Made by a program: the position numbers and the translations under genes
Shown here: one piece after another, positions 21,017 through 62,719 of the stretch
Numbering within the stretch: position 1 is the first letter of the stretch
How the letters are laid out: each line of letters opens with the position of its first letter
The notes under the pieces: generated by a model
Databases searched by the model: none
Seen by the model: only the letters and a program-made list of their open reading frames with translations
Told to the model about the DNA's origin: nothing
Sequence record: OK018184
Source: Shigella phage CT01
Reading direction: 5' to 3' (one strand)
Length of the DNA stretch: 64,000 nt

Positions 21017-21282
21017 TGCTCATCCTTCAAGGTTTGGTTTACAGCTCTATTATAAATCAATTCATCATTAAGCTCAGGCAAAGACTTATGATATGTAGTT
21101 CTAACTTTATTTCCTTGCATCCAGTGCTTGACGTAAATGAAACCTTGCTCTACACATTTTTTAAAAATTCGTTCATCCTTTTGAGCACGGAACTCTGGAT
21201 TACATCTAAAAAATTGATTTACGTGACCGTAATCACGTGTAGTATTACCTTCATTTTCATAAATAGTATGAACAACAAACAT
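21013..21282 (-). CDS. hypothetical protein at the 30.1 position
   Basis: 89-aa ORF, ATGA-coupled. Confidence 0.55.
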   Translation of the reverse strand: MFVVHTIYENEGNTTRDYGHVNQFFRCNPEFRAQKDERIFKKCVEQGFIYVKHWMQGNKVRTTYHKSLPELNDELIYNRAVNQTLKDEQ

Positions 21283-22214
21283 TAGAATGCTCCTTGAAAA
21301 ATATTATCACCACTAGTAGGTCTATTATACAAATACTCTATGCCACCAGGTTTAATATAGTTCCATGTCTGAAACGGATGTGTCTGATATGGATGATATA
21401 GATGATTATTAGGTCTATTATACAAATACTCTATGCCACCAGGTTTAATATAGTTCCATGTCTGAAACGGATGTGTCTGATATGGATGATATAGATGATT
21501 ATAAGGATTTAATCCAGGCGTTCTCCAGGTAGTGTTCCAAGGAAAAGAATCGTTTTTAACCATCTTCTCAATTAAATCTTTTATAGCTTTTTCACTATCA
21601 AAACTTTCTTTATTTTCCTTCGGCGAAAAAAGCTTATTTTCTACATCATTCCATGTATAAACTCGCTGCGCAGTTTTTGGAATATTGTCACGCTCTCCTC
21701 GAGCCATCCAATAAACAGGAACATTTAATATTTCACTCGCATGATCGCAGTGATGAGCGAGATCGTCAATATAACAAATTACGTTATATTTCTCTTTTGC
21801 CTTTTTGAACAGCTCTTCTTTTGAAGAATCATGACCACACATCATTACTTCCGAGAAAGCACCAGGAAAAAGAGCATTCAAATTAAATTGACGATTCAAC
21901 AGAGCGTCAATAGAATCACCCAATGCTGTAACAGCTACAAAATTATAATCTTCTTTTAATTTGTTAATTACACACAGGGCATCTTTATACGGAGACAAGT
22001 AACGAATAAAATCTGAACGATTGTATTTTTCAATTAACTTGACGCCAAGTTCTTCGTCACAATTAAAGAGTTTACCCGGAGAAATAAATTTCTCATCTTG
22101 GATCATTTTTAAAATATGTTCTAATGGAAGATTATATTTCTGAGCAAAATAAGGAAGGCCTGATTGCCAGCTTAAACATACTCCATCAATATCAGTTAAA
22201 ATAGTTGGCTTCAT
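21282..22214 (-). CDS. HAD-like hydrolase-family protein (30.2 position) with in-frame 31-aa C-terminal duplication
   Basis: N-terminal DIDGV (DxDG) HAD motif; C-terminus repeats NHLYHPYQTHPFQTWNYIKPGGIEYLYNRP twice. Confidence 0.6.
   Translation of the reverse strand: MKPTILTDIDGVCLSWQSGLPYFAQKYNLPLEHILKMIQDEKFISPGKLFNCDEELGVKLIEKYNRSDFIRYLSPYKDALCVINKLKEDYNFVAVTALGDSIDALLNRQFNLNALFPGAFSEVMMCGHDSSKEELFKKAKEKYNVICYIDDLAHHCDHASEILNVPVYWMARGERDNIPKTAQRVYTWNDVENKLFSPKENKESFDSEKAIKDLIEKMVKNDSFPWNTTWRTPGLNPYNHLYHPYQTHPFQTWNYIKPGGIEYLYNRPNNHLYHPYQTHPFQTWNYIKPGGIEYLYNRPTSGDNIFQGAF
21317..21502. repeat. perfect 93-bp tandem duplication (2 copies) inside the 30.2 ORF
   Basis: 21317-21409 is identical to 21410-21502. 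Confidence 0.9.
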
Positions 22215-27143: not shown

Positions 27144-27664
27144 GTTGATCCTAGCTCCTTACTTTCAACGTTTTTAACTAATTTGACAGAAACTAATTCA
27201 GCATCTTGGGTAATCATTACCGGGCCTTCTTCATACTCTTCAAGATATTCTAGAGCTTTCTTTTTAGCTTCTTCCTTCGTATCAGTTTGAGCATAGATAT
27301 AAAACATACAACCAGTAATACCTACTACTTTCCACTTAATTTCTTTATCAGTTTTAATTTCAAATTTACTGATAGAGTCATCTTTTTGAACTTCTTCGAA
27401 AAAATAATATTCTGACATATAAGTAATTGAAAATAGCGGGCTATCTTTATAAGATTCGCCCATTACATCAACAGCTTTATACCAGCAATCGTCAATTTCG
27501 CGTTTAATGCTAATAACATTTTTCGCAGGATCTATTTTTACTTTAAATGAATTTTCCCCAATAAACTGAGCAATTCGTTTATTAGCCCCGCAAGTTTCAT
27601 TAAAAATATCTTTATATCCAGCTTTAAAGCGATAAACCTTATCTTCTTCAAACCATTCGCTCAT
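27137..27664 (-). CDS. hypothetical protein
   Basis: 175-aa ORF. Confidence 0.5.
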   Translation of the reverse strand: MSEWFEEDKVYRFKAGYKDIFNETCGANKRIAQFIGENSFKVKIDPAKNVISIKREIDDCWYKAVDVMGESYKDSPLFSITYMSEYYFFEEVQKDDSISKFEIKTDKEIKWKVVGITGCMFYIYAQTDTKEEAKKKALEYLEEYEEGPVMITQDAELVSVKLVKNVESKELGSTC

Positions 27665-32665: not shown

Positions 32666-33817
32666 TTAAAAGTATTTTTTAAAACTCATCATAACTTTAT
32701 CATCAACATCATTATCAATCTGTGCAACAAGGTAAGATGACAGTTCTACTTCTTGTGGCGCGGATTGAACATTATCAGAATTAAGGTATTCACGAATCCA
32801 AGGATATGGATGTTTAACCGGAGCATCGGTAATTGGGCATGGAAGACCGCACTGTTTCATACGAGATACAGTTAAGTAATCAATAAAGCTCCACATGCTA
32901 TTTGTATTTAATCCAGGAACATCGCCATCTTTAAATAAATGAACTGCCCAATCTTTTTCTTGGCGGTTAACTTCCATGAAAATATTAACTGCTTCTTGTT
33001 CACACTCTTGAGCAATTTTAACCCATTCGCCGCCATCAGTACCGGATTGAAGTTGACGAATAATATATTGGGTGCCTTTAAGGTGAAGCTGCTCATCACG
33101 TGCAATGAACTTCATAATCTTGGCATTACCTTCCATGATTTCCATGTTCTTATGGAAGTTAAAGGTACATGCAAAAGATACATAAAAACGAATAGCTTCT
33201 AAGGCATTAATAACGTGCAAACAGAGGTAAAGAGATTTCATTAGTGCTCGTTTAGCTTCGGCTTCTTGTTTAATAGCTCGATTTAAACGAAAAACAGCAT
33301 CAGGAGATTCTTTAGCTAGTTCTGTAAATTCTTTAGCATTTTCCCATTCACGGGTTTTAGTCAGAACATCATCATAATAGCGACCGATAGATTCAGCACG
33401 TTTCATGATAGCTTCATCTAGTACAATCTCATCAAATACCTTCGATGGATCAGTATAAAGATTTCGCATGATATGGGTATATGAACGGCTATGAATAGTT
33501 TCACTAAAAGTCCATGTAGCAACCCATGTATCAAGACTTGGGTCTGAAATTAATGACATAAGTACTGCAGACGGTGCACGACCCTGAATGCTATCTAGAA
33601 GTGATTGATACTTCAGGTTGTTAGTAAAAATATCTTGCTGATACTGAGGAAGCTTGTTAAATTGTGCAGCATCCATCATTAAGTTTACTTCTTCAGGACG
33701 CCAGAAAAATGACAACTGCTTTTCGGTTAAATCTTCAAAAACTTTATGACGTTGAATATCATAACGCGCAATACCAAGACCTGAACCGAAGAACATAGGT
33801 TCTTTTAAAACATTCAA
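32666..33817 (-). CDS. nrdB: ribonucleotide reductase small subunit NrdB, intron-less
   Basis: 383 aa continuous ORF with the di-iron ligand region; no intron or I-TevIII ORF. Confidence 0.9.
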   Translation of the reverse strand: MNVLKEPMFFGSGLGIARYDIQRHKVFEDLTEKQLSFFWRPEEVNLMMDAAQFNKLPQYQQDIFTNNLKYQSLLDSIQGRAPSAVLMSLISDPSLDTWVATWTFSETIHSRSYTHIMRNLYTDPSKVFDEIVLDEAIMKRAESIGRYYDDVLTKTREWENAKEFTELAKESPDAVFRLNRAIKQEAEAKRALMKSLYLCLHVINALEAIRFYVSFACTFNFHKNMEIMEGNAKIMKFIARDEQLHLKGTQYIIRQLQSGTDGGEWVKIAQECEQEAVNIFMEVNRQEKDWAVHLFKDGDVPGLNTNSMWSFIDYLTVSRMKQCGLPCPITDAPVKHPYPWIREYLNSDNVQSAPQEVELSSYLVAQIDNDVDDKVMMSFKKYF

Positions 33818-33947
33818 CTAAATTTTCCTTATCATCAGAACCTCCCATACATCTAGGGATTATATGATGTGTCTCTTTATATTCTGATAAAGATTCCCGA
33901 GCCTGAGCTCGGGAAATTAGGTCATTATAGATTTTTTGATAATTCAT
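33759..33947 (-). pseudogene. mobE: truncated HNH homing-endonuclease remnant (mobE-like)
   Basis: 62-aa ORF with HNH motif ETHHIIPRCMGGSDDKENLV that runs into the nrdB start; lies in the nrdA-nrdB gap where T4 has mobE. Confidence 0.5.
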
Positions 33948-34729
33948 TACAATTTACACGCTGCGCAATCATCGGCTTTTGGAGTTTCTATTTCGTAATC
34001 ATCAGTACCGGAACCATCACGAGTATTATGATAATAGAAGTTTTTAATGCCATAATACCATCCGTATAGCATGTCATCAATCATTACAGACATTGGAACC
34101 TTTCCTTTTGGAAAAATCTGCGGGTCATAATATGTATTCGCTGAAGCTGATTGACATACCCATTTCAGCATAATAGCTACCTGCGTAAGATAAGGTTTAT
34201 TGCCTTTCTTAGCTAATTTCCACGTATAATCATAGAGGTCTATGTTATGCTCAATATTGGGCACGACTTGATTAAAGGAACCCTCTTTTGATTCTTTAAC
34301 AGAGACTGGTCCACGTGGAGGCTCGATACCGTTTGTACTGTTAGAAACTTGGGAAGATGACTCACATGGCATAAGTGCTGATAATGTGCTATTACGGATG
34401 CCAAAGAGCTTAAGGTCTTCCCGCAGCGACGACCAGTCACAAACGTATTTTGGAGCTGCGATTTGGTCAATCTTTTTATTGTACCAGTCGATAGGTAATT
34501 CGCCTCGAGACCAACGAGTGTCTGAATAATATTCGCAAGGTCCTTTTTCTTTGGCGAGCTTAATGGATGCTTTAATGAGCCCATACTGTAATCTCTCAAA
34601 TAGTTCATGTGTTAAATCGTTAGCATCTTCATAAGAAGCAAAGTTACTTGCCAGCCAAGCTGCATAGTTCGTAACACCAACACCGAGATTACGACGCTTT
34701 TTAGCTTTTAAAGCTTCTGGAACCGGATA

Positions 34730-34877
34730 ATCTTGATAGTCTAACAGGTTATCAAGTGCACGTACTTGAACTTCTGCTAATTCATTAATTTTATCTTGGT
34801 CTTGCCAATCGAAGTTATCCAACACAAATGCAGATAACGTGCACAATCCAATTTCAGCATCAGGACTATTCACATCA
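34730..34877. repeat. 148-bp direct repeat of nrdA sequence, left copy flanking the insert
   Basis: Identical to 35737-35884; encodes DVNSPDAEIGLCTLSAFVLDNFDWQDQDKINELAEVQVRALDNLLDYQD. Confidence 0.9.
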
Positions 34878-35736
34878 GTTCGACGCGTTGTTCTTGAAGA
34901 CGGATCACATACTTGGACTGCTAAACAAGATTTTAATGGCGCAGTTAACTTTAACTCTACTGTTAACCTTAATAACACTACCACATTTAAAACAGAAGTT
35001 AAATTCCGCTCGTTGAATGCATTCCGTATGTATGGCGGAAAATTTGGTACATTTTTACGTAATGATGGAGAGAGTCTTTATATTCTTTCCACCGACGAAG
35101 ATGATCAAGATGGAAACTTTAATACAAATAGACCTTTCCGTTATGAATTAAGAACTGGTGATGTTACTTTGGGTGGTGTTAGTGGTGCTAACGTTTTAAA
35201 ATTAAAACGTGATTCTCTCACCGCATTTTTTGGCGGTGATATTAACATGAAAGGCACGATGACTTTTGACGCCGGACGTTTAGGGTCACGAGATTATTTT
35301 AAATTTAACCATTGGGGTGATAGCAATAACGCTCGTGATAACATCATCCAGTTAGAAGATAGTCAAGGCGCTCATTTTTCCACTGAACGTACTTTAGCGA
35401 CTGGTGCAATTAAAACTCGTTTCTTTGGCGAAACATTCACTGATGGTACATTATACCTAAATCAGATGAATAATAGCTCTGAACGATTCCATATCAATAA
35501 TTGGGGAAATTCAGAAGTTGGTCGCGCGGCAGTGATGGAAGTCGGTGATTCCAAAGGTTATCACTTCTATACGGAACGCAGGACAGATAACAGTTTGACA
35601 TTTGATGTTGCTGGCACTTTTACCGTGCATGGACCTACCGGGATCACTATCAAAAACTCTGTTGGTGCTCGCCACATCTGGTTTAAAGATGATAGCGATG
35701 CAGAAAAGGCTGACAGTTTAATTACCTTCCGCAGTG
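34878..35736 (+). other. inserted segment derived from long tail fibre gene 37 (835 bp of gene 37 sequence plus 24-bp filler)
   Basis: 34876-35712 matches the gene 37 copy at 52582-53074 and also contains the 344 bp absent from that copy; 35713-35736 has no match in the window. Confidence 0.85.
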
Positions 35737-35884
35737 ATCTTGATAGTCTAACAGGTTATCAAGTGCACGTACTTGAACTTCTGCTAATTCATTAATTTTA
35801 TCTTGGTCTTGCCAATCGAAGTTATCCAACACAAATGCAGATAACGTGCACAATCCAATTTCAGCATCAGGACTATTCACATCA
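35737..35884. repeat. 148-bp direct repeat of nrdA sequence, right copy
   Basis: Identical to 34730-34877. Confidence 0.9.
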
Positions 35885-37208
35885 TTTGTTGGAATAGCAA
35901 TTTCACAACACAAGTTACTCTGGCGAATAGGCGCCTTTTCACGAATAAACGGAGTATAGTTATTCGTATTATCAATGAACTGCACATAAATCCTTGCTGT
36001 TCCTGATCGTTCAGTCATGAGTAATTCAAATAGTTCACGGGCTTTAATACGCTTTTTGCGAATATTAGGGTCTTTTTCTGCTGCTTCGTATAATTCGCAG
36101 AAACGGTCTTGGTCTTTAAAATAAGAATAATAAAGCTCACCACCCATTTCATGCGGACTGAACAAAGTAATGTAATCGTTCTTTCCAAAACGTTCCATCA
36201 TCAAATCATTCAACTGGACGCCATAATCCATATGACGGATACGGTTTTCTTCTACACCTTTGTTATTTTTCAAAACGAGAAGATTTTCAACTTCCAAATG
36301 CCAAATAGGATAATAAGCAGTAGCAGCGCCGCCACGAATTCCGCCCTGTGAACATGATTTAACAGCAGTCTGAAAATGTTTCCAAAAAGGAATAACACCA
36401 GTATGGCGTACTTCACCTGTGCCAATCTTAGAACCTTCGGCACGAATCATACCAACGTTAATACCGATTCCAGCTCGTTTTGAAATATACTCAACAATTG
36501 AAGCAGAAGCCTTATTGATAGACTTCAGCGAATCGCCTGCCTCAATAACAACGCATGAACTAAATTGCCGAGTCGGAGTACGACATCCAGCCATAATAGG
36601 AGTAGGCAGTGAAATCTGTCGAGTAGATACTGCTTCATAAAAACGAATAACATGTTTTAATCTATCAACAGGTTCATCTTGATGTAATGCCATTCCAATA
36701 GTCATAAATGCAAACTGAGGAGTTTCATAAATTTGACCAGTGGTTTTATCTTTAACGAGATATTTTTCTTTTAATTGCATCGCCCCGGAATAAGTAAATT
36801 CCATATCCCGCTCATGCTTAATTTTTGATTCTAAAAATGTAATTTCTTCTGCTGAATATTTTGACAACAATTCAGGGTCGTATTTACCTTCATTTACACA
36901 GTAAGAAATATGGTCAATAAATGAACGTGGTTCATATTGCCCGTAAACATGCTTACGAAGAGCAAACATTAAACACCGTGCAGCTACGTATTGATAATCA
37001 GGCTCTTCAACTGAAATAGAATTCGCAGCAGCCTTAATTACAATGGTTTGAATGTCATCAGTGGTCATTCCATCACGGAGATATGATTTAATATTTTCAT
37101 ATAATTCATAAGGATCTACAGATGTTCCTTCAGCTGCCCAAGATAAAACTTTAATAATTTTTTGCGGGTCAAAGCTTTGAGAAACACCACTACTTTTGAT
37201 AACATTAA

Positions 37209-37535
37209 TTAATTGCATAAGTCCTCAACTTGAAAATCGTCTTTAAACAATCGGTTAACTATATGAGCTATTATATCACCATGACACGGCTTTGGTTTAC
37301 ATGTGCATCCTAGCCTCATTCCACGTAAAGGCTCTAAATGTGCTTTAGTTATTTCTCCGGATTTAATTCGACGTATAAAATCTTTTTTGAATAATTCAAT
37401 GGCAGCCTCCCGGCTGCCAGCATCTTTACCGACGTAATTTCCCCAAAATGTACCACGGTGAATATTAACATCAAAGTCGGATTTATATTTATTCACTACT
37501 TGGCATAGACGGCCCGCGCGGTGATAATTTGTCAT
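37209..37535 (-). CDS. hypothetical Cys-rich protein at the nrdA.1 position
   Basis: 108-aa ORF upstream of nrdA. Confidence 0.55.
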
Positions 37536-37775: not shown

Positions 37776-38636
37776 TTACACCGCCATTTTTCCTTTAATA
37801 GGAGGGTGAGATACATAGTTGTTAAGAACAAAATTATGCGGCTTTGCGAATTGACTCAACCAAAATACCTGTGATTCTGTGTCCCATTCATCAAATTCAT
37901 CTGGAAATTTTAATTGTAATTCGCATAAATCCATAGGTTCACGACGCAAAATTTCTTTACATTGTTCTACGTGATTCATATAGATATGAGTATTACCACC
38001 AGAAAATATCAAATCTCCTGGAATAAGATTACACATCTTAGCTACAATATGAACTAATGCAGCATATGATGCAATGTTGAATGGCAAGCCCAAGAACACG
38101 TCAACACTTCTTTGATACCACTGCAAATCCAAATAGCCATTACGCACATTAAACTGATAGAACATATGACAAGGCGGTAATGCCATTTGCTTGAGTTCAG
38201 CTGGATTCCATGCTGAAACAATTTGACGTCTATCATTTGGCAGTTTTTTAATACGATCAACAACTTCTATAATTTGGTCTACACCGCCAAAATCACGCCA
38301 TTGTTTTCCATAAATTGGACCAAGTTCACCGCTATGATATCCTAAATCTTTTGCTTGATTTTCGTAATTTTCATCCCAGACTGTTTTGCCTTGAATTAAT
38401 GAATCATGCTGAATTAATCGTAAATCATTTACGTTAGTACTTCCTGATAAAAACCATATTAGCTCAGCAATGCAAGCTTTCCAGGCGAGCTTCTTAGTTG
38501 TTACTGCAGGAAAACCTTTACTTAAATCCCAGCGTAATTTAGTACCGAACAGAGCAATTGTTCCTGTGCCTGTTCGGTCATCAGTTTCATAGCCATTTTC
38601 AAAAATGTCTTTAATTAAATCTTGGTATTGTTTCAT
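37776..38636 (-). CDS. td: thymidylate synthase, intron-less
   Basis: 286 aa continuous ORF with active-site region PPCH; no group I intron or I-TevI ORF. Confidence 0.9.
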   Translation of the reverse strand: MKQYQDLIKDIFENGYETDDRTGTGTIALFGTKLRWDLSKGFPAVTTKKLAWKACIAELIWFLSGSTNVNDLRLIQHDSLIQGKTVWDENYENQAKDLGYHSGELGPIYGKQWRDFGGVDQIIEVVDRIKKLPNDRRQIVSAWNPAELKQMALPPCHMFYQFNVRNGYLDLQWYQRSVDVFLGLPFNIASYAALVHIVAKMCNLIPGDLIFSGGNTHIYMNHVEQCKEILRREPMDLCELQLKFPDEFDEWDTESQVFWLSQFAKPHNFVLNNYVSHPPIKGKMAV

Positions 38637-39049: not shown

Positions 39050-39876
<827 letters not shown>

Positions 39877-39884
39877 ATTATCTC

Positions 39885-40220
39885 CTAATATAAAGGATCG
39901 GGAACATATCCACTAGCTTTAATCATTTTGATTAATGTTAACATTCCTTTATTAACTGCTCGTGAGATTTCATCAAAAACTTCATCACTAAAAAGTTCTA
40001 ACACGCCCTTCTGAACTTTTAATTTACACCCAATAATTTCGTCATCGCCTATAGTAAATTCGTTTCCGCCAATTCCACCGAAAAACTTAATTGCACCAGT
40101 CAACTGTCTTCCACGAGAATATGGGTCGTGTGATAAAGTAATATGAGTCACCCCAGGTACAGTTTTAAATTGACAGCGGATGTTTACTTGGGCAATTCCA
40201 GTTACGTGAATGTCAGACAT
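39885..40220 (-). CDS. hypothetical protein (frd.2-like position)
   Basis: 111-aa ORF. Confidence 0.5.
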   Translation of the reverse strand: MSDIHVTGIAQVNIRCQFKTVPGVTHITLSHDPYSRGRQLTGAIKFFGGIGGNEFTIGDDEIIGCKLKVQKGVLELFSDEVFDEISRAVNKGMLTLIKMIKASGYVPDPLY

Positions 40221-40244
40221 AATATTTTCCTCAAACAGACTTTT

Positions 40245-41472: not shown

Positions 41473-42381
41473 TTAAAGGTCATTCAAAAGGTCATCCAGA
41501 TCCGTGTCATCAGCACTAGATGAACTGCCAGAGCTTGAGCTCATAAAATCATCTTCAGTTTTTGTTTTGAAGTCATCAACATTGAATGCATCCAAATCAT
41601 CAGCAACTTTATCAGCTTTCTTAGCGGCAGTTGCTGCGGCACCGCCCATAGCAGCAGTTCCCATAACTTGACTGAACTTAGTGCTCAGTTCTTCAAACGA
41701 TTTGAATTTATCTTTAGAAGTCATTTCAGAAAGGTCAACCATTTGTTCGAACAGTTCTTTCTGGAAAGATTCATCATCAATGTTTGGAATCGCAGATTGA
41801 TTCAGGAATTTAGATTCATCGTAGTTACTAAAACCAGAAACTTGTTTAACTTTCAGTACAAAGTTAGCACCTTCCCACGGACAAGTTACATCAACCGGAG
41901 TTTCACCCATTTCAACATCAACTGCAATCATTGCATTGATTTTATCCCAGATTTTCTTACCAAAACGGTATTTAAATACTTTACCTTCATTTTCTGGAGC
42001 AGCTGGGTCTTTTACTACAAGAATGTTAGCCCAGTAAGAAGTTTTACGTTTAACAAGACCGTACTCTTTATTGTCAGTGTTATACAAATCATTTTTACTG
42101 ATGTACTGACATACTGGACAAGAATCGTAATCACCGTGGGTAGATGAACAGTTTTCAATATACCATTTACCATTTTTCTTGAAACCGTGATTTACAAGAA
42201 TTGCGAATGGTGCTTGTTCATCATTTTTAGACGGAAGAAAACGAATTACTGCTTGACCGTTACCCGCATTATCGAGTTTCAGTTTCCACTCGCCTTTATC
42301 TTCAGAAGAAAAACTACCTTTATTTCCAGCCAGTTTAGCCATTTGTGCAGCGAGTTCAGCAGTAGATTTACGTTTAAACAT
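41473..42381 (-). CDS. 32: single-stranded DNA-binding protein gp32
   Basis: 302 aa; [17 protein letters not shown]..., acidic C-terminus [12 protein letters not shown]; matches recalled T4 gp32. Confidence 0.9.
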
Positions 42382-42628
42382 TTTTATTTCCTTTTTAATT
42401 TAATTAACAGTTGGTGCTATGACGATGTATGACCTCATAGCTGGTCAGTGAGATAATTATAATCTATTTATAATAAGCAATTAATACTTACAAGATTTCA
42501 CAGTTTCAATGAAAACACTTTTGGCTTTCTGTGAATCAATATTTAAAATTTTTCTATAAGCCTTTAACTTTATAGAATAATTATTCCAGACTAAATTATC
42601 AGTCTGTTCATCATGTTTATCAATTATA
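42091..42628. repeat. 538-bp direct repeat, copy 1 (gene 32 5' end, its leader, and the gene 59 3' end)
   Basis: Identical to 42692-43229 (offset 601 bp). Confidence 0.9.
42481..42628 (-). pseudogene. duplicated 3' fragment of gene 59 (last 48 codons)
   Basis: Encodes [48 protein letters not shown], identical to the gp59 C-terminus. Confidence 0.7.
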
Positions 42629-42691
42629 ATTCGAACTGATCTGTGTTTGTGCATTTGGGCATATGTTTGCGCGCGTAAAGCAGGCTGGTCG
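42629..42691. other. 63-bp unique spacer between the two 538-bp repeat copies
   Basis: No match found elsewhere in the window by eye. Confidence 0.6.
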
Positions 42692-42982
42692 ATTTTTACT
42701 GATGTACTGACATACTGGACAAGAATCGTAATCACCGTGGGTAGATGAACAGTTTTCAATATACCATTTACCATTTTTCTTGAAACCGTGATTTACAAGA
42801 ATTGCGAATGGTGCTTGTTCATCATTTTTAGACGGAAGAAAACGAATTACTGCTTGACCGTTACCCGCATTATCGAGTTTCAGTTTCCACTCGCCTTTAT
42901 CTTCAGAAGAAAAACTACCTTTATTTCCAGCCAGTTTAGCCATTTGTGCAGCGAGTTCAGCAGTAGATTTACGTTTAAACAT
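42692..42982 (-). pseudogene. duplicated 5' fragment of gene 32 (first 97 codons) fused to junction sequence
   Basis: Track ORF 42620..42982 begins with the gp32 N-terminus and then diverges into spacer-encoded residues. Confidence 0.7.
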
Positions 42983-43229
42983 TTTTATTTCCTTTTTAAT
43001 TTAATTAACAGTTGGTGCTATGACGATGTATGACCTCATAGCTGGTCAGTGAGATAATTATAATCTATTTATAATAAGCAATTAATACTTACAAGATTTC
43101 ACAGTTTCAATGAAAACACTTTTGGCTTTCTGTGAATCAATATTTAAAATTTTTCTATAAGCCTTTAACTTTATAGAATAATTATTCCAGACTAAATTAT
43201 CAGTCTGTTCATCATGTTTATCAATTATA
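42692..43229. repeat. 538-bp direct repeat, copy 2
   Basis: Identical to 42091-42628. Confidence 0.9.
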
Positions 43230-50403: not shown

Positions 50404-51096
50404 ATGGCTGATTTAAAAGTAGGTTCAACTGTGGGTGGATCTGTCATTTGGCATCAAGGAAATTTTCCATTGAATTCAGCCGGTGACGATGTACTCTACA
50501 AATCATTTAAAATATATTCAGAATATAATAAACCGCAGGCAGCTGATAACGATTTCGTTTCTAAAGCTAATGGTGGTACTTACACCGGTCCAATTACTAT
50601 TAATTACGGGGTAAATAGTTATCTTCAATTAAGTAATAATGAAACCCCTATCCGAATTCGTTCTGGTGGCGGCACCGGTAATACTCTTGTAATTGGTGGA
50701 TCTTCTGGTGGTATTAGTTTTAGACCTGCAGGTAGTGAAATCACTACTGGACAAATTAGTTTTAGACCTGCAGGTAGTGAAATCACTACTGGACAAATTA
50801 CTATTACGCCAGAAGGTTTGACAACATTCACCAAAGCTGTAAAGGCTCCATCTGTAACTGTTACATCTACTCCTTCCGCAGCATCAGATGCTACTCGTAA
50901 AGATTATGTTGATGGAGCAATAAATACTGTTACAGCAAATGCAAACTCTAGAGTGTTACGATCTGGTGACACCATGACAGGAAATTTAACTGCGCCAAAC
51001 CTTTTTTCACAGAATCCTGCATCTCAACCTTCACACGTTCCACGATTTGACCAAATCGTAATTAAGGATTCTGTTCAAGATTTCGGCTATTATTAA
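50404..51096 (+). CDS. 36: long tail fibre distal connector gp36 (with internal 14-aa tandem duplication)
   Basis: 230 aa; N- and C-terminal regions match recalled T4 gp36; [14 protein letters not shown] occurs twice. Confidence 0.8.
50713..50796. repeat. perfect 42-bp tandem duplication (2 copies) inside gene 36
   Basis: attagttttagacctgcaggtagtgaaatcactactggacaa repeated back to back. Confidence 0.9.
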
Positions 51097-51104
51097 GAGG
51101 ACTT

Positions 51105-53835
51105 ATGGCTACTTTAAAACAAATACAATTTAAAAGAAGCAAAACCGCAGGTCAACTTCCTGCTGCTTCAGTATTAGCCGAAGGTGAATTGGCTATTAAT
51201 TTAAAAGATAAAACAATTTTCACAAAAGATGACTCAGGCAATGTTATAGAATTAGGTTTAAAATATGGAGGAACAATTGATGGTTCTTTAACTGTTAATG
51301 GAAATATAATTGGAAATTTAACAGGTAACGCTGCAACTGCAACGAAATTAAAAACAGCACGAAAAATTAATGGTATATCCTTTGATGGGTCAAAAGATAT
51401 CACGCTAACTCCATCCGACATAAATGTCAATAGCACAACGTTTATAAAAAATAACGGCGAATTACCTGTTGATGCTAATTTAGATACGTATGGGCCTGTT
51501 GAAGAATATCTTGGAGTTTGGTCGAAAGCAACTTCAACCAACGCTCAACCAGCAAATAAATTTCCAGAAAACAATGCTGTAGGTGTGCTAGAAGTATTTG
51601 TGGCCGGTCAATTTGCTGGTACTCAGAGATATACAACTAGATACGGAAATGTTTATATTCGTTCCTTGACTGCTACATGGAACGGAGTAAATGGTCCGTG
51701 GAGTGTGTGGCGAAATATTCAATCCGGTACTCGTTCACTGTCAACAACAATTGATCTTAATGATCTAGGAGGTGCTGAACATCTTGGTTTGTGGCGAAAT
51801 AGTTCAAATTCCATTGCTACCTTTGACAGAAATTTCCCAGAAGAGGGGTCGTCAGCTCAAGGTCTTTTGGAAGTATATGAAGGTGGAAACTATTCTCGTA
51901 CACAAAGATATACAACCAGATTTGGTGTTGTTTATACTCGCTGTCTTACTGCTGCGTGGGATGCTTCTGCGCCTAAATGGGGACCGTGGCAACAAGTCGG
52001 TAATGTCACACCGGCGACTTTCTATGACGGAAACCTGAATGATTTTAAAACTCCTGGGTTATATAATATTTTAGGCACTGATGCCGTTATTAATTGTCCT
52101 ACAGGCGAAGGTTTACCAGCCGTTATTGTTGGTTTGCTGGAAGTTAAACAGCGTGCTTCTGGCGGTGCTATTTTCCAAAAATTTACTACTGCCGGAACAG
52201 GTGCAACTACCCGCGATCGTATTTTTGAGCGCGCATATACCGGCGGTGTGTGGGGTGAATGGAACGAAGTATACACATCTTATTCTCTACCAATTACTTT
52301 GGGTATGGGCGGTATTAAATCTAACTTAGCAGAGTTAGACTGGCAAGCATTTGATTTTGTTCCTGGTAGTATGTTTAGCGTTCCTTTGAACAAAATAAAG
52401 AACATGCCAGCTAATATGGATTGGGGTACGATTGACGGAAACTTAATTATGTTTTCTGTTGGTCCTAGCGAGCACACCAGCACAGGACGTACTGTTCAGG
52501 TTTGGCGTGGAACTGTATCCCAGACAAACTATCGTTATTTTGTCGTTCGTGTATTCGGTAATCCAGGGAGTAGAACATGTACAGTTCGACGCGTTGTTCT
52601 TGAAGACGGATCACATACTTGGACTGCTAAACAAGATTTTAATGGCGCAGTTAACTTTAACTCTACTGTTAACCTTAATAACACTACCACATTTAAAACA
52701 GAAGTTAAATTCCGCTCGTTGAATGCAAGGCGCTCATTTTTCCACTGAACGTACTTTAGCGACTGGTGCAATTAAAACTCGTTTCTTTGGCGAAACATTC
52801 ACTGATGGTACATTATACCTAAATCAGATGAATAATAGCTCTGAACGATTCCATATCAATAATTGGGGAAATTCAGAAGTTGGTCGCGCGGCAGTGATGG
52901 AAGTCGGTGATTCCAAAGGTTATCACTTCTATACGGAACGCAGGACAGATAACAGTTTGACATTTGATGTTGCTGGCACTTTTACCGTGCATGGACCTAC
53001 CGGGATCACTATCAAAAACTCTGTTGGTGCTCGCCACATCTGGTTTAAAGATGATAGCGATGCAGAAAAGGCTGTTATCTGGGCTACAGATGAGGGTATT
53101 TTACATATTCGCAATAATCATGAGGGTTCATTTAGTCATCACTTCCAGGGTGCAATGATTAAACTGGAAGGGCGTGTTCCTTATGGTGCAGCAAAAGGGC
53201 TTATTCGAGGCGAGATAGACGGTGGTGCATATGTTGCATGGAGAGACCGCCCTGCTGGTTTGTTGGTTGACTGCCAGAAAAGTATTGACAGTGCTCATGC
53301 TGTTTGGAAAGCGGTTGATTGGGGGCGTCAATATATCGCTGCTATGGACGTTCATTGTCCGGGTGATGGTAATAATACTGCGGCAGCGGTTCTTCATGTT
53401 CAGGCTGCTGATTATCAATTCCATGCAAGCGGAGAATTTCATGCCACTGGTAACGGGAACTTTAACGATGTGTATATTCGTTCCGATGGTCGTCTGAAAA
53501 TTAATGTTGAAGATTATACAGGAAATGCGTTAAGTTTGATCGGCAAACTGAAAGTGAAAACTTACGATAAAGTTAAATCTCTTAAAGACCGTGAAATTAT
53601 CGGTCACGAGATCGGCATTATCGCACAGGATTTACAAGAAATATTACCGGAAGCTGTAAAATCTTCAAAGGTTGGCAATCTTGATAATCCAGACGATGTT
53701 CTGACAATTTCTAACTCTGCTGTGAATGCTCTTTTAATTAAGGCTATTCAGGAAATGAGTAAAGAAATTAAAGAATTGAAAACTCCTTTCTTTACTAAAA
53801 TTGCTCGCAAAATTAGTAAATATTTTAAATTCTAA
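51105..53835 (+). pseudogene. 37: long tail fibre distal subunit gene 37, broken by a 344-bp frameshifting deletion at 52727/52728
   Basis: Two overlapping ORFs in different frames (51105..52748 and 52723..53835); the missing 344 bp is present in the copy inside nrdA at 35022-35365. Confidence 0.8.
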
Positions 53836-53870: not shown

Positions 53871-54653
53871 ATGGCAGTAGTTGGTGTTCCTGGTTGGATT
53901 GGAAGTTCAGCCGCAAATGAAACAGGGCAACGATGGATGAGTCAAGCGGCTGGTCAACTAAGATTGGGTGTTCCTTGCTGGATGAGTCAATTTTCAGGTC
54001 GCTCGCGAGAAATTATTCATACACTTGGTGCAGACCATAACTTCAATGGTCAGTGGTTCCGTGATAGATGCTTTGAGGCAGGTAGTACACCTATAGTGTT
54101 TAATATTACAGGTGATTTAGTATCATATTCTAAAGATGTTCCTTTATTCTTTATGTACGGAGATACACCGAATGAATATGTTCAGTTGAATATACATGGC
54201 GTAACGATGTATGGTCGTGGCGGGAATGGCGGTAGCAATAGTCCTGGATCAGCTGGGGGTCATTGTATTCAAAATGATATTGGTGGGAGACTAAGAATTA
54301 ATAATGGCGGAGCTATTGCTGGCGGTGGCGGTGGCGGTGGCGGCGGATATTATTCTCCTTTTTCACAAATGAGATTGACCTTTGGCGGTGGCGGCGGTCG
54401 TCCGTTTGGCGCTCCGGGCGGATCTATTGATATGCAATCAGGAGCAACTGCTGGTACTATTTCTGCACCAGGCTCAGGGTCTGTGAACGGTATCTATAGC
54501 GGCGGGTCTGGTGGTGAAGTTGGATCCGCAGGGGGTAGATGTAATATTCGTGGTCAAGGATATGAATACGATGGCGGAGCTGCTGGTTATGCCGTCATAG
54601 GGTCTACGCCGACATGGCAAAACGTTGGAGCAATATATGGTCCAAGAGTATAA
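53871..54653 (+). CDS. 38: T2-type gp38 receptor-binding adhesin with glycine-rich motifs
   Basis: 260 aa with several poly-Gly runs ([25 protein letters not shown]) between variable segments; too long for a T4-type gp38 chaperone. Confidence 0.75.
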
Positions 54654-54685
54654 TTTTTGAATAAATATCCTTAAAAGGAGGGTCT

Positions 54686-61475: not shown

Positions 61476-61751
61476 TCATAGTTCAATCTCAGCGATTTTC
61501 ATTTCATTACTATTAATAGCCGCTTTAAGACTATCTGAAAGAATTACATCCCAGTGGTCATTCATATGACCATTAACTAAACGTGTAATTTCTTCGGGAG
61601 TTGAAAAATAAGGCGTATCAGACTCCCAATGCGATAGTCCCAAGCGAGTATAAATCATACCTTCATCATCGCTAGAATATTCAACTGACACAAACTCATC
61701 AGTTATTTTATGTTTAGCGTAATAAAATTTAAATTTCATTTTATTCTCCAA
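61476..61751 (-). CDS. hypothetical protein
   Basis: 91-aa ORF with a promoter block upstream. Confidence 0.5.
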   Translation of the reverse strand: MENKMKFKFYYAKHKITDEFVSVEYSSDDEGMIYTRLGLSHWESDTPYFSTPEEITRLVNGHMNDHWDVILSDSLKAAINSNEMKIAEIEL

Positions 61752-61820: not shown

Positions 61821-62378
61821 TTAAATGGAAAGATACCATCCGTTGTAGTTGCTTTTTCTTACAACCTTACGAAGGTCTTCTCTATCACCGACGAACTTCG
61901 GAGTGTACTGGATGACACCTGGATGAATTTCTTTAGTGTTGAATATAATTATACAGTCAGCGACTTGATGATTCAGAATGGGCCCTAGATTTATTCCAGA
62001 ACCGTATGGATACTCTCCGCTGCATCCGGTTGTTACAGAAATCCAACGTGAGTCAGTTTGGTGTGTCTTAACTTCTACGCGAATCCCGCAGTATCTTGGA
62101 TGCGCCAATACATCCCATGCGTATGTATACGGGTCATTAACATCCTCTTGGCCTTTGTTAACATACCCGCTTAGCCAATCTGCTACAAAAAACTCTGCGT
62201 ACACCGCGATACGGCATCTTTCGATAACTTCTGCTTTATCCTGATTTGGATTTTGTTTTAAAGAGTATCTTGCTGTATCAGCAATTTTGACCTTCATTTC
62301 ACTAGTCAAGTCACTGTTCGATAGGGTAAATGTCGGAATCTGAAATAGTCTCTGTAAACCCGGATTCGTTTTCTGCAT
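61821..62378 (-). CDS. denB: endonuclease IV (DenB)-like protein
   Basis: 185 aa, T4 denB length and position between ndd and rIIB; identity by synteny and length only. Confidence 0.6.
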   Translation of the reverse strand: MQKTNPGLQRLFQIPTFTLSNSDLTSEMKVKIADTARYSLKQNPNQDKAEVIERCRIAVYAEFFVADWLSGYVNKGQEDVNDPYTYAWDVLAHPRYCGIRVEVKTHQTDSRWISVTTGCSGEYPYGSGINLGPILNHQVADCIIIFNTKEIHPGVIQYTPKFVGDREDLRKVVRKSNYNGWYLSI

Positions 62379-62719
62379 TAAACTTTCCTTTTACGTCGGA
62401 ATCACTGATATTCATACAATAAATCATAACTTCCCTTAAAACAAAAGGGCCGAAGCCCCTTATTTTATTTGAATTGTGCAATTCTTTTCTCTATCTTGCT
62501 GTATCAGCAATTTTGACCTTCATTTCACTAGTCAAGTCACTGTTCGATAGGGTAAATGTCGGAATCTGAAATAGTCTCTGTAAACCCGGATTCGTTTTCT
62601 GCATTAAACTTTCCTTTTACGTCGGAATCACTGATATTCATACAATAAATCATAACTTCCCTTAAAACAAAAGGGCCGAAGCCCCTTATTTTATTTGAAT
62701 TGTGCAATTCTTTTCTCTA
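62266..62719. repeat. perfect 226-bp tandem duplication (2 copies) spanning the denB 5' end, its upstream region with terminator, and the 3' end of the 64-aa gene
   Basis: 62266-62491 is identical to 62492-62717; boundaries ambiguous by 2 bp. Confidence 0.9.
62446..62468 (-). terminator. hairpin gggc-cgaa-gccc plus T-run; further copies at 62672-62694 and 62903-62925
   Basis: aaaagggccgaagccccttattttatttgaattg occurs three times. Confidence 0.5.

Follow-up and report, generated by a model that had tools for sequence, protein, structure and literature searches.

How can a phage genome carry a tail-fiber gene that is broken at its own locus, with the lost part standing complete inside another gene, and can such an arrangement belong to a living phage? 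The question is raised by gene 37 and nrdA in a 64,000-nucleotide stretch of Shigella phage CT01 (OK018184), which we call the window and which is that of a T4-like phage (Tequatrovirus). The nearest public record, Shigella phage SF2-1 (PQ571308.1), is 99.2% identical in the gene 37 region and 99.7% identical in nrdA; its gene order is kept throughout the window, and its own g37 (3075 bp) and nrdA (2265 bp) are both intact. The SF2-1 annotation gives gp37 as the distal half of the long tail fiber, and T4 genetics has established that this protein is required for adsorption. On balance we lean to the view that the window represents a real genome of SF2-1 type whose structure has been scrambled, the sequence being chimeric, mis-assembled or otherwise altered, and the evidence for and against this view is set out below.

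The gene 37 locus contains the following features.

51105-52748, plus strand: 5' open reading frame (ORF) of gene 37, 547 aa, consisting of 540 native codons followed by 7 out-of-frame codons and a stop.
52582-52727, plus strand: native left flank of the deletion, 146 bp, 100% identical to 34876-35021.
52726-52727, plus strand: deletion junction, CA, a 2-bp microhomology, with 344 bp lost relative to SF2-1 and to the copy in nrdA.
52728-53074, plus strand: native right flank, 347 bp (349 bp with the CA), 100% identical to 35366-35712.
52723-53835, plus strand: 3' ORF of gene 37, 370 aa, containing the Peptidase_S74 chaperone domain.

The initial annotation had described gene 37 as broken into ORFs of 547 and 370 aa in different frames, and this is what we find, the 3' ORF overlapping the stop of the 5' ORF by 26 nt. 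It had also put the loss at 344 bp relative to the nrdA copy, with microhomology at the junction. Both points hold: the flanks are identical to the copy over 146 bp on the left and 349 bp on the right (52726-53074 and 35364-35712, 100%), the 344 bp at 35022-35365 are without counterpart at the gene 37 locus, and the microhomology is the 2-bp CA. The 5' ORF is 98.5% identical to SF2-1 g37 and 99.8% identical to a Logan contig (L011). The deletion begins directly after codon 541 and cuts a Gp34_trimer-like domain in half, leaving the S74 domain in the 3' ORF only, so that no single ORF of about 1000 codons runs from the gp36-binding N terminus to the S74 domain as the sequence is written. Only when 35022-35365 is re-inserted does a single gp37 ORF appear, of 3075 nt (1024 codons plus stop, close to the roughly 1025 codons predicted earlier), and its product differs from SF2-1 gp37 at 4 residues. 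The earlier claim that gene 37 as written is non-functional is supported. By chance the junction brings an out-of-frame native ATG (TTGAATGCA, 52723-52731) in frame with the 3' ORF (MQGAHFSTE...), and no Shine-Dalgarno sequence or other ribosome-binding site is evident upstream of it.

All phage records among the matches listed align across this junction in two pieces, with some 344 extra bases. A hairpin or long repeat as the driver of the deletion was rejected, given that nothing convincing lies at the endpoints and no longer imperfect repeat is present; the junction shares only the 2-bp CA, and random breakpoints give at least 2 bp 18% of the time. Scans of IMG/VR returned 0 matches for either gene 37 junction, phage database searches yielded neither a record with either junction nor a relative closer than SF2-1, and among E. 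coli genomes no record covered at least 80% of a probe across the 344-bp deletion junction. As a separate observation, E. coli chromosomal tail-fiber genes, presumably of prophages, share 91-97% DNA identity with parts of 52577-52877. They are annotated as 'pyocin knob domain-containing S74 family peptidase' and 'tail fiber domain-containing protein', and the similarity illustrates that T-even phages and host-resident elements are known to share fiber modules.

The second half of the arrangement lies in nrdA.

34876-35712, plus strand: ectopic gene 37 copy, 837 bp, the intact central part of the gene, 100% identical to SF2-1 g37.
35022-35365, plus strand: the 344-bp segment lost from native gene 37, inside the ectopic copy.
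35713-35736: 24-nt filler, ACAGTTTAATTACCTTCCGCAGTG, origin unmatched.
34730-34877: first copy of a 148-bp nrdA duplication that brackets the insert.
35737-35884: second copy of the duplication, identical to 34730-34877.
35722-37218, minus strand: ORF of the nrdA 5' fragment, 498 aa, with the ATP-cone, the all-alpha domain and barrel-domain positions 1-268 of 523.
33947-34984, minus strand: ORF of the nrdA 3' fragment, 345 aa as listed from a GTG start within the insert, with barrel-domain positions 222-523 of 523.

Read along the plus strand, nrdA continues to 34877, where a 2-bp CA overlap leads into the 837 bp of gene 37, then the 24-nt filler, and then nrdA again, restarting 148 bp behind its exit point. 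The copy has the orientation of gene 37 and is antisense to nrdA, and the ORF at 34839-35795 matches Pfam Gp34_trimer. In the window it is the only complete version of the 344-bp segment, as had been stated. Neither a start nor a ribosome-binding site is evident for the 3' half of nrdA. Because both ends of the copied stretch remain at native gene 37, the insert in nrdA is the result of a copy event and not of cut-and-paste. Nothing in the window, in 75 kb of SF2-1 or in E. coli genomes matches the 24-nt filler, and gene 37 sequence within nrdA was found in 0 of 850 related phage records. No informative single-nucleotide polymorphism (SNP) falls in the copied stretch, all of them lying outside 52152-53122. 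The donor is therefore not traceable further, and a mosaic boundary at the ends of the copied segment was rejected on the same positions.

We considered whether the insert might be a transposon, intron or homing element and rejected all three, since it contains no enzyme gene and is characterized by a 148-bp duplication, an orphan filler and a 2-bp entry; its content is an internal gene 37 fragment plus 24 nt of filler. General repeat searches, which did not specifically seek terminal repeats, gave no inverted repeat matching the insert ends. A split ('genes-in-pieces') nrdA is known from Aeromonas phage Aeh1, where it results from insertion of mobE and both halves have been shown to work. The present case is alike in that a T4-like nrdA is interrupted in the barrel domain and read as two ORFs. 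It differs in that the Aeh1 insert is a homing endonuclease gene, whereas here it is an antisense tail-fiber fragment and nothing suggests function.

The key to reading the gene 37/nrdA pair is that it belongs to a cluster of private rearrangements, which, with the 24-nt filler and the 148-bp duplication, goes beyond what had been noted before. Private junctions were told from ordinary mosaicism by whole-window alignment to SF2-1 and by breakpoint probes against phages ECO07P4, LYE-01 and EcNP1. At least 10 structural junctions lie between 21.3 kb and the end of the window and are present in none of the compared phage genomes (the junction-spanning probes are absent from all three probed phages), whereas positions 1 to 21.3 kb show 0 rearrangements relative to SF2-1. 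Its members are duplications without mismatch (93, 226, 538 and 148 bp), losses of 181, 629, 124 and 344 bp, fillers 24 and 63 nt long, and a stretch of the window copied in inverted orientation.

21317-21502: tandem duplication of 93 bp, exact and in frame (31 codons) in the ORF 21282-22214, with 0 bp of microhomology.
24638: 181-bp deletion, intergenic, upstream of rIII, with 3 bp of microhomology.
33812-33819: 629-bp deletion taking out the greater part of mobE, a homing-endonuclease gene, together with the initial 26 nt of nrdB, among them its ATG.
34877-35884: nrdA insertion, made up of the gene 37 copy, the 24-nt filler and the 148-bp duplication.
40449: 124-bp deletion that joins two small genes, one (DUF5417) losing its start and its neighbor the stop, at an imperfect repeat (8/10 bases).
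42091-43229: 538-bp duplication at the gene 32/59 boundary, both genes intact, with the 63-nt filler (42629-42691) between the two copies.
52727: 344-bp deletion in gene 37, a private junction.
62266-62717: 226-bp exact tandem duplication at the boundary of denB and the downstream ORF, both genes intact, with 2 bp of microhomology.
63934: inverted junction; the window ends in 66 nt that are the perfect reverse complement of 27248-27313.

Every duplicated copy is a 100% match. What remains after the 629-bp deletion is a MobE stump of 62 aa and an NrdB ORF that lacks a proper start, and every record among the matches listed (561 records matched) aligns across it in two pieces. The inverted copy is joined, with one extra base, inside the 3' end of rIIA, which it interrupts. 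As written, therefore, gp37 is frameshifted, NrdA split, NrdB without a start, MobE truncated and rIIA interrupted. The gene with the 93-bp duplication belongs to the 30.x region and sits in a patch divergent from SF2-1; the duplication is absent from SF2-1, ECO07P4 and LYE-01. Ordinary mosaicism common to other phages accounts for a 595-bp block (39633-40226) and a divergent stretch (37813-37933). At 61737-61743 a small ORF (SF2-1 gp155) has been lost with 212 bp between two copies of CATTTTA, the reverse complement of the TAAAATG gene-start motif; this is probably natural, cassette-type variation, because ECO07P4 is also without the gp155 ORF.

About 8 of the junctions lie in stretches otherwise identical to SF2-1, as against ∼5 isolated point differences and a few clustered SNP patches. 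Such a ratio of rearrangements to point differences is implausibly high for ordinary divergence, which does not yield it, and the junctions are therefore either very recent or not biological. In other respects the genome looks natural. About nine-tenths of the point differences from SF2-1, in ORFs taken in their own frame, affect third codon positions, the differences are grouped in patches, no homopolymer errors were found between window and SF2-1, and most 500-bp bins in 9.5-36.5 kb and 52-64 kb hold 0 differences. From these features, structural changes aside, the base genome reads as that of a real phage, accurately sequenced and naturally diverged, and a noisy long-read consensus was rejected in view of the missing homopolymer errors. 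The strain's own Hoc, gp34 and gp36 proteins have no record in a 153-billion-gene index, and the strain itself is therefore not in the public collections searched. Exact-protein look-ups were likewise without a record for the gp37 5' ORF, gp36, the NrdA 5' fragment, Hoc, the protein with the 93-bp duplication and gp34; gp35 alone found a match, in OR780565.1 and a Logan contig, and gene 37 is intact in both.

The junctions themselves carry signatures of how they were formed. At the eight junctions without filler the exact microhomology is 3, 2, 2, 2, 7, 2, 2 and 0 bp, for a random expectation of P(≥2 bp) = 0.18 (200,000 simulated deletions in the same sequence), and at two junctions there are longer imperfect repeats (8/10 and 7/8 bases). 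The fillers measure 24, 63 and 1 nt. Within the 63-nt filler (49% G+C), 26 nt match E. coli mdtD exactly and 40/47 bases match overall (BLAST E = 2e-5 against 28 Gb), and host-type DNA has therefore been joined in at this point. Only ∼35 nt match mdtD well; the flanks are much poorer, their mismatches falling elsewhere than at third codon positions, and when a hybrid MdtD peptide was used in a protein search, no MdtD ortholog with the residues of the filler flanks came up. Because the flanks are unlike a clean ortholog and known MdtD orthologs differ there, the filler may be composite. Metagenome scans returned E. coli-type mdtD only. Two genome-contig scans for the 24-32-nt core returned nothing even though nearly all E. 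coli contain it and are thus uninformative; the same core pattern did match an E. coli locus (L003) as a positive control, and negatives from that contig collection need caution. Finally, the inverted end copy bears a SNP private to the window (27296G) and was therefore templated from this same genome. Together the microhomology, the host-like filler and the self-templating suggest that the junctions were made by enzymatic joining or template switching, and speak against random cut-and-paste.

These signatures speak for a genuine in vivo rearrangement, in which recombination-dependent (break-induced) replication would have made serial microhomology-mediated template switches, as in microhomology-mediated break-induced replication (MMBIR), fork stalling and template switching (FoSTeS) or chromoanasynthesis. 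It would have produced the duplications and deletions, the inserts templated by gene 37 and by host mdtD DNA, and the inverted copy, in a defective genome packaged by the headful mechanism and either kept only via co-infection or caught as a dead end. Hastings et al. (2009, PMC2621351) describe complex rearrangements whose junctions show microhomology of 2-5 bp and short sequences that were inserted or templated, with clustered discontinuous duplications mixed with deletions and an inverted duplication. The window resembles this description: its breakpoints are clustered and mix duplication, deletion and inversion, and the junctions have microhomology, mostly of 2-3 bp, and/or short templated insertions, one of them host-like, with the copies templated from the same genome. 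MMBIR was, however, described for human and cellular genomes and is not known from a phage, and for the window an in vivo origin is a candidate reading.

A closer precedent is T4 itself, which is documented to form microhomology-flanked tandem amplifications and deletions quickly, typically at repeats of 6-10 bp (Srikant, Guegler and Laub 2022, PMC9391042, and the earlier rII duplication work cited there). These events concern the same phage family and share with the window exact tandem duplications and deletions of dispensable DNA that retain one copy of a short repeat; only the 212-bp deletion (7-bp CATTTTA) and the 124-bp deletion (8/10 bases) fit the pattern. The junctions here mostly have 0-3 bp, some have fillers, one is ectopic and one inverted, and the T4 events were selected for benefit whereas the gene 37 event is deleterious. 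That the essential genes of the first 21 kb are free of lesions is in favor of an in vivo origin. Against it are the short microhomology, a gene 37 frameshift that cannot be the majority genotype of a lysate, an mdtD-like filler that is not a clean E. coli or Shigella copy, and the absence of any precedent that we could find for ten such events in a single phage genome. We therefore regard an in vivo origin as a real but distinctly less probable explanation.

A further feature of the pair might be taken for design or function, namely that all 344 bp of the deletion belong to the 837 bp that were copied. With five deletions (four private, plus the 212-bp one) placed at random in the 43-kb rearranged stretch, the chance that at least one would fall inside the copied stretch is ∼0.06, as estimated from lengths, and the coincidence is suggestive but not compelling. 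Were the link real, a perfect repeat 17 kb away could have provoked aberrant recombination in the repeated stretch, or a deletion within the duplicated stretch could be rescued by recombination and hence survive better. Recombination in T4 needs ∼50 bp of homology, which arms of 146 and 347 bp exceed.

It is on this geometry that a functional 'silent cassette' could be argued, gene 37 being kept broken and rebuilt by gene conversion from the nrdA copy as an on/off switch of adsorption. The arms are 100% identical, in direct orientation and longer than recombination demands, and the position of the deletion is mildly improbable by chance. Restored genomes, however, would at once outcompete broken ones, and the broken form therefore could not be the consensus. 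The donor is moreover identical to the expected sequence and adds no diversity, none of the 850 related records has the arrangement, and the neighboring private rearrangements indicate general scrambling and not a dedicated process. A diversity-generating retroelement (DGR) or a pilS/pilE-like silent cassette was rejected because native locus and copy are 100% identical wherever they overlap and none of the relatives compared has the arrangement; gene order is that of SF2-1, whose annotation has no reverse transcriptase. We find the switch scarcely credible.

The same layout, with 344 bp lost entirely inside a copied 837 bp between perfect arms, is that of a marker-rescue experiment, and a deliberately engineered or computationally altered genome was also considered, such as a recombination reporter in which gene 37 is broken and a donor placed in the dispensable nrdA, or a set of in-silico rearrangements. 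The complete identity of every duplicated copy would suit this, as would the absence of the strain's own proteins from the gene index. The initial annotation, which had offered engineering among several origins, is not borne out on this point: there is no vector, selectable marker, restriction site, scar or designed junction, the junctions are ragged (2-bp microhomology, 24-nt orphan filler, 148-bp back-step duplication), and the remaining rearrangements have no design logic. The fillers bear no evident resemblance to sequencing adapters, and a plasmid search with the nrdA/g37 left-junction probe (34727-35027) returned nothing, the fillers themselves not being part of any search against plasmids or vectors. 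Microhomology enrichment and an E. coli mdtD core would also be unexpected from random in-silico edits. Engineering is thus unlikely. An unresolved recombination intermediate, another of the origins proposed, does not agree with junctions that are sealed and consist of 2-bp microhomology or filler, which are not the joints of homologous recombination. A defective genome or an assembly artifact, the two remaining proposals, are the ones that stand.

What decides for the chimeric, mis-assembled or altered sequence toward which we lean is the fate of gene 37. The frameshift cannot be the majority genotype of a plaque-forming stock, which is why a sequence of this kind is favored, and the junctions most likely do not represent a propagating phage, because loss of gp37 should be lethal. 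With gp37, NrdA, NrdB and MobE all damaged, the arrangement is without function, and the sequence as written cannot be that of a clonally propagated phage. The junctions would then be artifacts, resembling amplification or library chimeras or mis-assemblies in that they are private, accompanied by few point differences, join DNA of the same genome or the host, and give a non-viable result. The cluster bears the marks of serial template switching or of ends joined illegitimately, and not those of a mobile element or designed cassette. The events at the pair can be put in a plausible order. First, 837 bp would have been copied from an intact gene 37 into nrdA, with entry at a 2-bp CA microhomology. 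The copying would have ended via the 24-nt filler, with nrdA re-entered 148 bp behind the exit, giving the 148-bp duplication. The 344-bp deletion would then have arisen at native gene 37 at a second 2-bp CA microhomology, within the stretch already copied.

Several points weigh against an artifact. The microhomology enrichment and host-like filler argue for real enzymatic joining and would not be given by purely computational mis-joins, and De Bruijn mis-assemblies require long repeats, not 2 bp. The very high base quality of the consensus is hard to square with a contig from few chimeric long reads, and such a consensus should out-vote rare chimeras. Chimeras of multiple-displacement amplification are mostly inverted, which holds for only 1 of the ∼12 junctions here, and in chimeras from blunt ligation the microhomology should be at the random level. 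The tandem duplications, moreover, leave genes 32, 59 and denB intact, and all lesions but one strike genes that are dispensable in T4, and this sparing of essential genes is what selection on a living phage would leave.

The distinction matters for how the record is used. If the junctions are artifacts, the sequence is unfit as a reference or for inferences on tail fibers and host range, and its gp37, NrdA, NrdB and MobE are miscalled. If they were real and on one molecule, they would record template switching that rearranged a T4-like phage in a burst, host DNA having been captured at a junction, and would bear on how break-induced replication scrambles viral genomes. We think it very unlikely that the window documents a propagating lineage that rebuilds a broken gene 37 from the nrdA copy or, more modestly, the first chromoanasynthesis-like (MMBIR) catastrophe of a phage with capture of host DNA. 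No new system is defined by illegitimate junctions of known kinds in a known phage type, and the finding, though a true observation on the sequence, is best classed as no real biological feature.

Two smaller differences from SF2-1 were also noted. In gene 36 an additional 42-bp (14-codon) repeat unit is present at 50713-50754, 88% identical to the neighboring unit, and gp36 here is 230 aa, compared with 216 aa in SF2-1 and the other relatives checked. In the spacer between gene 38 and gene t, a 12-bp insertion relative to SF2-1 (AATTTTTGAATA, 54652-54663) is set in surroundings identical to those of SF2-1.

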